A DNA stretch of 660 nucleotides from Escherichia coli (GTDB lineage: Bacteria > Pseudomonadota > Gammaproteobacteria > Enterobacterales > Enterobacteriaceae), in assembly GCF_003334255.1 (NCBI RefSeq), contig NZ_QOWU01000201.1. One strand, 5' to 3'. Position numbers and translations under genes: made by a program. Positions within the stretch are counted from its first letter, which is position 1. Each line of letters opens with the position of its first letter. Under the pieces are notes generated by a model. The model was not told the origin of the DNA, did no database searches, and saw only the letters and a program-made list of their open reading frames with translations. This document shows positions 1 through 660 of the stretch, one piece after another.

Positions 1-660
1 CCCTCATCCTCGCTGCGGATAAGTTTGCCGGTCAGGTCGTGGTGATAACGCTGTGTGCGGCCGTCAAAGCCGGTTTCCTGTATCAGCCGGTCGAGTACAT
101 CGTAACGGAAGGTGGTGTGGCTGCCGTTTTCACTGGTCAGGCGGATGACCCGTCCGGCAGCATCGTATTCCATACTGCGCGTCAGCCCGCCCTGCGTGGT
201 ACAGATGGCCTTTCCCCACGCATCGTACTGTGTCCCGTTTCTGCTGCCGTCCGGGGCAATGACGGCGGTCAGGTCACCGGCGATGTTGTATTCATACCGC
301 GTTTCATGGCCCTGCGTGTCTTTCACGGCAATTAACTGTCCACGGCTGTCGTATGCGCGGTACTGACTCAGCCCTTCCTCGCGGTGCACCGCCGTCATCT
401 GCCCGAAGCGGTCATGGTCATAACGGGTTACATAACCGGAACAGTCGGTGAAGCTCAGCAACTGACCGTAACGGCTCCACGTCATGGTTTTCCGGCTGCC
501 GGTGGCATCTTCCGTTGCGCAGGGTAAGTCACTGTGTGGATTATCATAACGGTAGCGGGTGATATCGCCGTCAGGGGCAGTTTCCTGAATCAGACGGCCC
601 AATTCATCATATTCCCGGCGCAATTCCAGCCCGTCAGGCCCGGTGGCTGACGTTAACTGG
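1..660 (-). CDS. rhs: Rhs-family core protein (YD-repeat region), internal fragment truncated at both window edges; RhsA/B/C-type enterobacterial core
   Basis: Seen in sequence: the reverse complement read from window position 659 gives 219 consecutive sense codons with no stop, ending at position 3. Translation begins QLTSATGPDGLELRREYDELGRLIQETAPDGDITRYRYDNPHSDLPCATEDATGS and ends SHTTFRYDVLDRLIQETGFDGRTQRYHHDLTGKLIRSEDEG. It contains repeated YD dipeptides in the Rhs/YD-repeat context (xYxYDxxGRL(I/V), spaced about 21 residues). Established knowledge: this matches, from memory, the conserved core of E. coli-type Rhs proteins; no database search was run. Paralog (rhsA, rhsB, rhsC etc.) cannot be assigned because the cores are near-identical, so the symbol is the family designation only. 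Absent from the ORF track because it runs off both edges. Confidence 0.94.
36..611 (-). repeat. Tandem array of about ten YD (Rhs) peptide-repeat units encoded on the minus strand, period about 63 nt; protein-level repeats, not identical DNA repeats
   Basis: Seen in sequence: the codons for the Y-D (or degenerate) dipeptide fall at plus-strand coordinates 606..611 (EYD), 543..548 (YRYD), 465..470 (degenerate YG), 417..422 (RYDHD), 348..353 (YRAYD), 285..290 (degenerate YEYN), 222..227 (QYD), 162..167 (EYD), 99..104 (RYD) and 36..47 (degenerate YHHD). Spacing is 60 to 69 nt. On the plus strand the recurring hexamer is atcgta or atcata, the reverse complement of tacgat or tatgat. Confidence 0.85.

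Follow-up and report, generated by a model that had tools for sequence, protein, structure and literature searches.

An internal 660-base stretch of an Escherichia coli clade I Rhs core: near-identical copies, probable exchange between loci, and breakage in draft assemblies

The Rhs core protein is the YD-repeat shell of a polymorphic toxin. The hot-spot part of the family name reportedly goes back to Lin, Capage, and Hill in 1984 and is said to have meant, in its original sense, an unequal crossover between rhsA and rhsB that duplicated the interval between them. By the classical definition an Rhs gene consists of a G+C-rich core followed by an A+T-rich extension, as described by Jackson et al. 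(2009, PMC2935791), who regard the family as an ancient one in the Enterobacteriaceae and attribute the expansion of clade I within E. coli to transposition. Kilobase-long, near-identical copies that undergo recA-type unequal crossover, give amplifications, and break contigs are likewise known from rRNA operons and IS elements. In contrast to those two classes of repeats, Rhs cores are protein-coding, are not self-mobile, and have copies that differ at scattered sites.

The window, by which we mean the whole 660-nucleotide stretch of DNA analyzed here, resembles most closely the RhsA-B-C-F subfamily (clade I, Jackson et al. 2009; NF041261). Its DNA is 99.4 to 100% identical to rhsA and rhsB and 97.9% identical to the rhsC gene of K-12. 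The loci are the same, namely nikR-rhsB-yhhH, yibF-rhsA-yibA, and ybfA-rhsC-ybfB, and so is the combination of a GC-rich core with an AT-rich tip. We found no difference of substance from this subfamily, the window carrying strain-specific alleles at core nucleotides (nt) 1866 to 1893. The RhsD/E subfamily is alike in architecture and in its YD repeats, and rhsD aligns over the window at 78%. However, the DNA divergence of about 22% is too great for efficient homologous exchange, and this portion of the core is missing from the rhsE pseudogene. Taking the evidence below together, we put at about 95% the probability that the window is an internal 660-base stretch of the 3.7-kb core of an E. coli clade I Rhs gene (RhsA/B/C subfamily) that holds about five YD repeats and to which an account of multicopy recombination and assembly breakage applies. 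A multicopy, GC-rich Rhs core, recombination between its copies, and the breakage of assemblies within it are all textbook knowledge already.

Among the six reading frames of the window, only minus-strand frame 1 is free of stop codons, and its 219 codons run open at both window ends. The window corresponds to sense-strand nt 1416 to 2075 of the gene, read antisense. An Rhs core had been recognized here in a preliminary description made from the sequence, and this identification was borne out by the profile searches. The translation covers positions 481 to 699 of the 1,261-position NCBIfam profile NF041261 (RHS_core) with an E value of 6.6e-129 and 431.7 bits. Six matches to the Pfam family RHS_repeat (PF05593) were found in the 219 amino acids, all with E<=1.4e-4, and TIGR01643 matched at E=6.5e-28. 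The features placed on the window are as follows.

3..659, minus strand: open reading frame segment, codons 473 to 691 of an RhsA/B-type RHS element core protein (core nt 1417-2073).
564..659, minus strand: YD/RHS repeat, residues 1 to 32 of the window translation (PF05593, i-E 4e-07).
372..476, minus strand: YD/RHS repeat, residues 62 to 96 (PF05593, i-E 1.1e-07).
243..353, minus strand: YD/RHS repeat, residues 103 to 139 (PF05593, i-E 3.9e-10), coinciding with the best TIGR01643 stretch, residues 103 to 140.
54..227, minus strand: two overlapping YD/RHS matches, residues 145 to 180 and 165 to 202 (PF05593, i-E 1.4e-04 and 1.1e-10).
601..623, minus strand: paralogue-variable sites at core nt 1453, 1455, and 1475, where core-only draft contigs recurrently start (nt 1456).
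234..239, minus strand: six bases, AACGGG in the sense direction, absent from rhsA of strain G1/2 and present in every other copy compared.
183..210, minus strand: cluster variable between paralogues and strains, core nt 1866, 1870, 1873, 1890, and 1893, from the variable-site table of eight cores.

At the cluster of core nt 1866 to 1893 the window has the alleles of rhsA and rhsB of the G strains and of rhsC of strain N18-04097, which differ from those of K-12 rhsA and rhsB. Beside it, core nt 1872, 1890, and 1899 are end points of several partial-protein fragments from draft assemblies. Open reading frames on the plus strand, up to 98 amino acids long, were dismissed as antisense artifacts, the minus-strand frame being the only one without stops and matching Rhs along its full length. 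A search of both strands of the window against Rfam at E<=1 gave no match, and a repeat search found no direct repeats within it. The single inverted repeat in the window, a weak one of 18 nt with 83% complementarity, was taken as chance.

The genes that contain sequence 100% identical to the window score 2647 and 2648 bits on NF041261 over profile positions 1 to 1261, the curated cutoff for this RHS_core equivalog being 2000 bits. Their Rhs-associated core domain, TIGR03696, lies outside the window at residues 1170 to 1247 (E=1.4e-23). RhsB has DUF6531 at its N terminus and, at its C terminus, PF03527 (E=5.1e-16, beyond the window) and the DUF4329 tip; the variable, AT-rich tip, also outside the window, is 37.3% G+C. 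Small genes lie downstream, with yhhH overlapping the end of rhsB and yibA following rhsA, and these are candidate immunity genes. The defining features of a clade I Rhs gene that were examined are thus all present: YD repeats, a full-length core score, the core domain, a tip with a small gene, and a core that occurs at several loci. The rhsB and rhsC loci are also followed, a short way downstream, by ISAs1-family (H-repeat) transposase genes together with HEAT-repeat or Rhs tip remnants (L001 7753-9380 and L009 168-2228). This arrangement is the classical Rhs composite structure, and the DNA in these two regions is 31 to 47% G+C.

Comparison with solved structures, made through sequence homology, links the window translation to Tse5 (8cp6; E=1.6e-48) and to an Rhs protein (7q97; E=3.5e-37). 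Over the T6SS-associated Rhs toxins as a group (Pseudomonas Tse5 8cp6, 7q97, Tse15 8uxt, and Tre23 7pq5), the alignment to the shell takes in all 219 residues, with E values between 1.6e-48 and 4.5e-24. Teneurin YD shells match the window less well, at 2e-15 or weaker, and precomputed PF25023 (TEN_YD-shell) matches exist on the draft fragment proteins. Residues 473 to 691 are accordingly predicted, from homology and from established structural work, to form part of the YD-repeat beta-sheet shell, or cocoon, around the toxin; this shell would enclose the variable C-terminal toxin until its delivery into a neighboring cell. The solved T6SS Rhs proteins are attached to the spike via PAAR/VgrG, whereas RhsB here begins with DUF6531, and the PAAR_motif match at its N terminus is nonsignificant (E=0.23 over 19 residues). 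The DNA within 12 kb of rhsB and the part of the rhsA region that was covered contain neither vgrG nor hcp.

Several near-identical copies per genome had been expected for a core of this kind, and the searches showed them. By megablast against 5,426 complete E. coli genomes, the window was located at 16,622 places in 3,897 genomes, nearly all of them chromosomal, with a median of 4, a maximum of 7, and a minimum of 1 place per matching genome. Matches of 100% identity lie at two different loci, one being rhsB of strain G1/2, between nikR and yhhH, and the other, in strain G6/7, the Rhs gene that occupies the rhsA locus between yibF and yibA. Strain G1/2 has five copies of the window, of which two were placed, the K-12 loci standing in for the other three. 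Among the matches listed, genomes with a 100% or 99.8% match have it at 4 to 6 places each. Other strains have matches of 99.7 to 99.8% in genes that carry the names rhsA, rhsB, or rhsC, one of which was confirmed to lie at the kdp-ybfA (rhsC) locus. The chromosomal loci of the core are conserved, with rhsA beside yibF, rhsB beside nikR, and rhsC beside ybfA. Within K-12 MG1655, identity to the window is 99.5% for rhsB, 99.4% for rhsA, 97.9% for rhsC, and 78.3% for rhsD, and the window segment is absent from the truncated pseudogene rhsE. The K-12 cores are themselves 99.2% identical between rhsA and rhsB over 3,713 nt and 97.0% identical between rhsA and rhsC over 3,744 nt. Uninterrupted identity between rhsA and rhsB extends over at most 1,811 nt in K-12 (core nt 82-1892), a stretch that includes part of the window only, and over at most 3,386 nt in G6/7 (core nt 82-3467), a stretch that spans the window entirely.

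These counts bear on the alternative that the segment is a single-copy YD-repeat gene of background composition. A single-copy source is possible in principle, about 28% of complete genomes being unmatched and the lowest count being one per matching genome. However, the 4 to 6 places in every listed genome with a 100% or 99.8% match and the 100% identity at two loci in the best-matching strains contradict a single copy, and a G+C content 5.5 points above that of the flanks contradicts background composition, so that we regard this alternative as highly improbable. The multicopy core is the reading retained, and one of its consequences had been anticipated in the preliminary description, which held that copy number and context could not be read from the window. 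Indeed, because the window is 100% identical at both the rhsA and the rhsB loci, its chromosomal locus is not inferable from its sequence.

Two further observations concern the distribution and naming of these genes. No megablast match to this core segment was obtained in 1,529 of the 5,426 complete E. coli genomes (28%), and a considerable share of the species therefore either lacks the clade I core or has it in strongly diverged form. The names rhsA, rhsB, and rhsC follow protein similarity rather than locus, as seen in the ybfA/kdp-adjacent gene of NZ_CP069926.1 (L012 1-2771), which is named rhsB, and a gene name is therefore no guide to chromosomal position.

Differences between the copies were studied in an alignment of eight cores: K-12 rhsA, rhsB, and rhsC, rhsA and rhsB of G1/2, rhsA and rhsB of G6/7, and rhsC of N18-04097. 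Variable columns number 137 of 3,700 and are arranged in blocks. The rhsA gene of G6/7 is of the rhsA type up to nt 81 and again from nt 3468 on, and between these points it is identical to the rhsB gene of the same strain. The rhsC gene of N18-04097, at the kdp-ybfA locus, has ends of the rhsC type and is of the rhsA/B type at about nt 954 to 1866 and at nt 2235 to 2407. Runs tests reached the observed clustering in none of 100,000 shuffled site orders (p<1e-5). Such block mosaics are the signature of nonreciprocal exchange between loci. As a mechanism, core copies that are 97 to 100% identical would act as long dispersed direct repeats, and RecA-type homologous recombination between them would produce gene conversion that keeps the copies alike and yet block-mosaic. 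Candidate conversion tracts extend up to about 3.4 kb and comprise the stretch of nt 82 to 3467 in which rhsA equals rhsB in G strains, as well as the rhsA/B-type tracts in rhsC.

Mosaics of this kind might also arise as artifacts, if short-read polishing or mis-joining had copied bases between paralogues in assemblies labeled complete. The cores of the complete genomes do contain suspicious lesions, rhsA of G1/2 and rhsC of N18-04097 both being annotated "frameshifted," and G1/2, G6/7, and G8 share a source, a country, and probably a pipeline. However, the finished reference K-12 MG1655, to which the polishing account does not apply, also has the long exact stretch between rhsA and rhsB described above, within cores that are 99.2% identical; the mosaic blocks are sharply bounded and leave the 5' and 3' ends locus-specific; and homologous exchange between rhsA and rhsB has been seen experimentally as 139-kb amplifications (PMC4340650). 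We therefore consider an artifactual origin unlikely. Exchange between the loci is the reading that we prefer, and we lean toward the view that ectopic gene conversion between distant Rhs loci is both frequent and ongoing in natural E. coli. If that is true, the published view that rhs loci are no recombination hot spots in nature would need to be qualified, and the break points of core-only contigs in public draft assemblies could be used to map, at population scale, where the paralogues differ at present.

Reciprocal exchange is a separate matter. Unequal crossover under laboratory selection leads to tandem amplification of the interval of about 140 kb between rhsB and rhsA. An amplification of 139 kb between these genes was found in five evolved isolates, was ascribed to unequal crossover at the 3.7-kb homologies, and was called frequently observed (PMC4340650); another, of 147 kb, was bounded by rhsB and rhsA (PMC3588905). 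The core had been described beforehand as a recombination substrate and a rearrangement hot spot. The first part of that description stands, on the block mosaics and on these amplifications, whereas a natural hot spot is disputed, with no natural chromosomal rearrangement via rhs published and the hot-spot phenotype regarded as an artifact of selection (Jackson et al. 2009, PMC2935791). A role in reciprocal rearrangement is, on that account, documented in the laboratory only. The K-12 rhs genes that were examined are all on the plus strand of the record. Reciprocal exchange between such direct repeats would duplicate or delete long intervals and would not invert them stably, and the direct-repeat layout could explain why transient amplifications alone are seen.

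The two frameshifted genes carry different kinds of lesions. Relative to its sister in G6/7, rhsA of G1/2 (L002 14408-18531) has one substitution and deletions of 2, 2, and 6 bases, none of them in a homopolymer, and these point to a genuine inactivation in the recent past or else to an error of polishing within repeated DNA. The rhsC gene of N18-04097 (L009 3882-8074) has one A missing from a run of five at core nt ~1234, which is typical of a long-read homopolymer error and not of a true pseudogene.

A hand count in the preliminary description had put the first 180 bases at about 60% G+C, and exact computation gave a similar figure of 58.9%, with 58.6% for positions 1 to 660 and 55.8 to 62.5% in sliding windows of 120 bases. 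The whole 3,713-base rhsB core is 61.8% G+C. On average, the E. coli genome has a G+C content of about 50.8%. Non-Rhs flanks totaling 65.6 kb are about 53.1% G+C, and comparison with this background places the window 5.5 points higher. The claim of GC richness relative to the host thus holds for the core, and for the window it needs to be tempered. Flank windows of 660 bases average 53.2%, and 9.3% of them reach 58.6%, so that the window alone is no strong outlier; by comparison, not one of the 300 windows of core length (3.7 kb) taken from the flanks reaches the 61.8% of the core, their maximum being 58.7%. The unusual feature is the sustained G+C content over the full core, not that of the 660-base window. 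By codon position, the G+C contents are as follows.

Window, codon positions 1, 2, and 3: 60.3%, 47.9%, and 67.1%.
Whole core, codon positions 1, 2, and 3: 64.7%, 48.1%, and 72.7%.
Sixteen neighboring genes, codon positions 1, 2, and 3: 59.2%, 41.0%, and 62.0%.

Because positions 2 and 3 are both raised, the excess is partly driven by amino acids and partly synonymous. Substitutions among the eight clade I cores, polarized with rhsD as the outgroup, comprise 63 S>W and 41 W>S changes (p=0.039), and the per-site rates imply an equilibrium of about 51% G+C, far under the present value. Such a bias would fit a core that is slowly decaying from a higher past G+C content, although this reading is not decisive, since bacteria in general show more S>W than W>S among their recent changes. 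GC-biased gene conversion was considered as a cause of the high G+C content and is not supported, since the substitutions run in the opposite direction.

A horizontal origin had been drawn from this composition, and it is the least secure part of that interpretation. It is weakly supported by the G+C excess, and the family has been described as ancient in the Enterobacteriaceae (Jackson et al. 2009, PMC2935791). It is a real possibility, if one somewhat short of an even chance, that the high G+C content instead reflects a protein and codon constraint intrinsic to Rhs cores wherever they occur, with no foreign origin, in which case the inference of horizontal origin would be unwarranted. Second codon positions lie 7 points above those of the 16 neighbors, pointing to amino acid composition. 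The core is also richer than the tip in Serratia, at 67.7% versus 46.4% (Jackson et al., PMC2935791). There is likewise no sign of recent interspecies transfer, the nearest proteins from outside Escherichia/Shigella among the 50 matches listed being only 62 to 72% identical. However, third positions are raised as well, and the S>W excess with its low equilibrium is what would be expected of decay from a GC-richer past, common though such an excess is in bacteria.

The hazard of misassembly from short reads, also foreseen, is evident in the many tiny core-only contigs and in "plasmid" records that end inside the core. A protein search with the window translation listed 50 matches, mostly "partial" and on contigs with about three times as many nucleotides as the protein has residues, as with a protein of 369 amino acids on a contig of 1,106 nt. 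The 50 listed matches include no full-length Rhs protein and are biased for estimating how frequently assemblies break. Some of the clusters among them are large, with 4,345, 3,793, 3,069, and 2,609 member sequences. Three clusters that overlap the window region were examined, with 4,345, 3,069, and 365 members (about 7,800); all 45 of their listed members are partial, and 44 of the 45 are on core-only contigs of 240 to 1,267 nt. Contig DADKMQ010000130.1 of GCA_017134875.1, 1,106 nt long, consists entirely of core nt 1006 to 2111. When 58 high-identity fragments were mapped on RhsB, nt 955 was the start of six of them and nt 982 and 1456 also recurred as starts, and the recurrent ends were nt 2157, in six fragments, and nt 1899. 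Of the fragment ends, 34.5% fall no more than 3 nt from a site at which the paralogues vary, versus 17.5% for random positions (binomial p=9e-6), the fragments being nonindependent and the variable sites being drawn from eight sequences.

Where identical stretches exceed short-read and insert lengths, assemblers would merge or break the copies, and the assembly graph would fork at paralogue differences, giving breaks there. Copies are broken or merged where paralogues differ because the identical stretches outlast reads and inserts. Since the copies differ at scattered sites, Rhs assemblies split into sub-kilobase pieces and not into one collapsed contig. The practical caution is that a read or contig from this core region has no assignable locus, rhsA being equal to rhsB in some strains, and that short-read variant calls inside the Rhs core are unreliable. 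A discrepant, false Illumina single nucleotide polymorphism in rhsC has been described in the typing of a Shiga-toxigenic E. coli (STEC) outbreak (PMC6703438). Stray core fragments are present in draft assemblies and even in records labeled as plasmids.

A plasmid collection contained the core in ten records, of which five are 2.3 to 19 kb, one is 280 kb, and four are 1.0 to 4.8 Mb. Plasmid carriage was considered as a route of transfer and was rejected: all ten records are typed as nonmobilizable, those of 5.2 and 10.2 kb have no annotated plasmid functions, and four are chromosome-sized. The smaller of these two, NZ_CP069926.1, "Klebsiella oxytoca plasmid unnamed17" (L012 1-5191), is linear, 5,191 bp long, and reads kdpA-kdpF-ybfA-rhs, ending within the core. 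Its protein accessions WP_000424924.1 and WP_001272653.1 are annotated in an E. coli genome too. This suggests that the record is E. coli DNA in a Klebsiella assembly, a stray repeat-bounded contig labeled as a plasmid. The other, CP088628.1 (L013), is a circular "plasmid" of 10,245 bp from E. coli C17EC0098 with the core at 6716 to 7375, at 96.2% identity, in a place where no gene is annotated. Its only annotated genes are short open reading frames of 37 to 105 codons that encode a YbbC/YhhH family protein, a DUF6258 family protein, and a pentapeptide repeat-containing protein, and the molecule could be an excised or mis-circularized Rhs locus.
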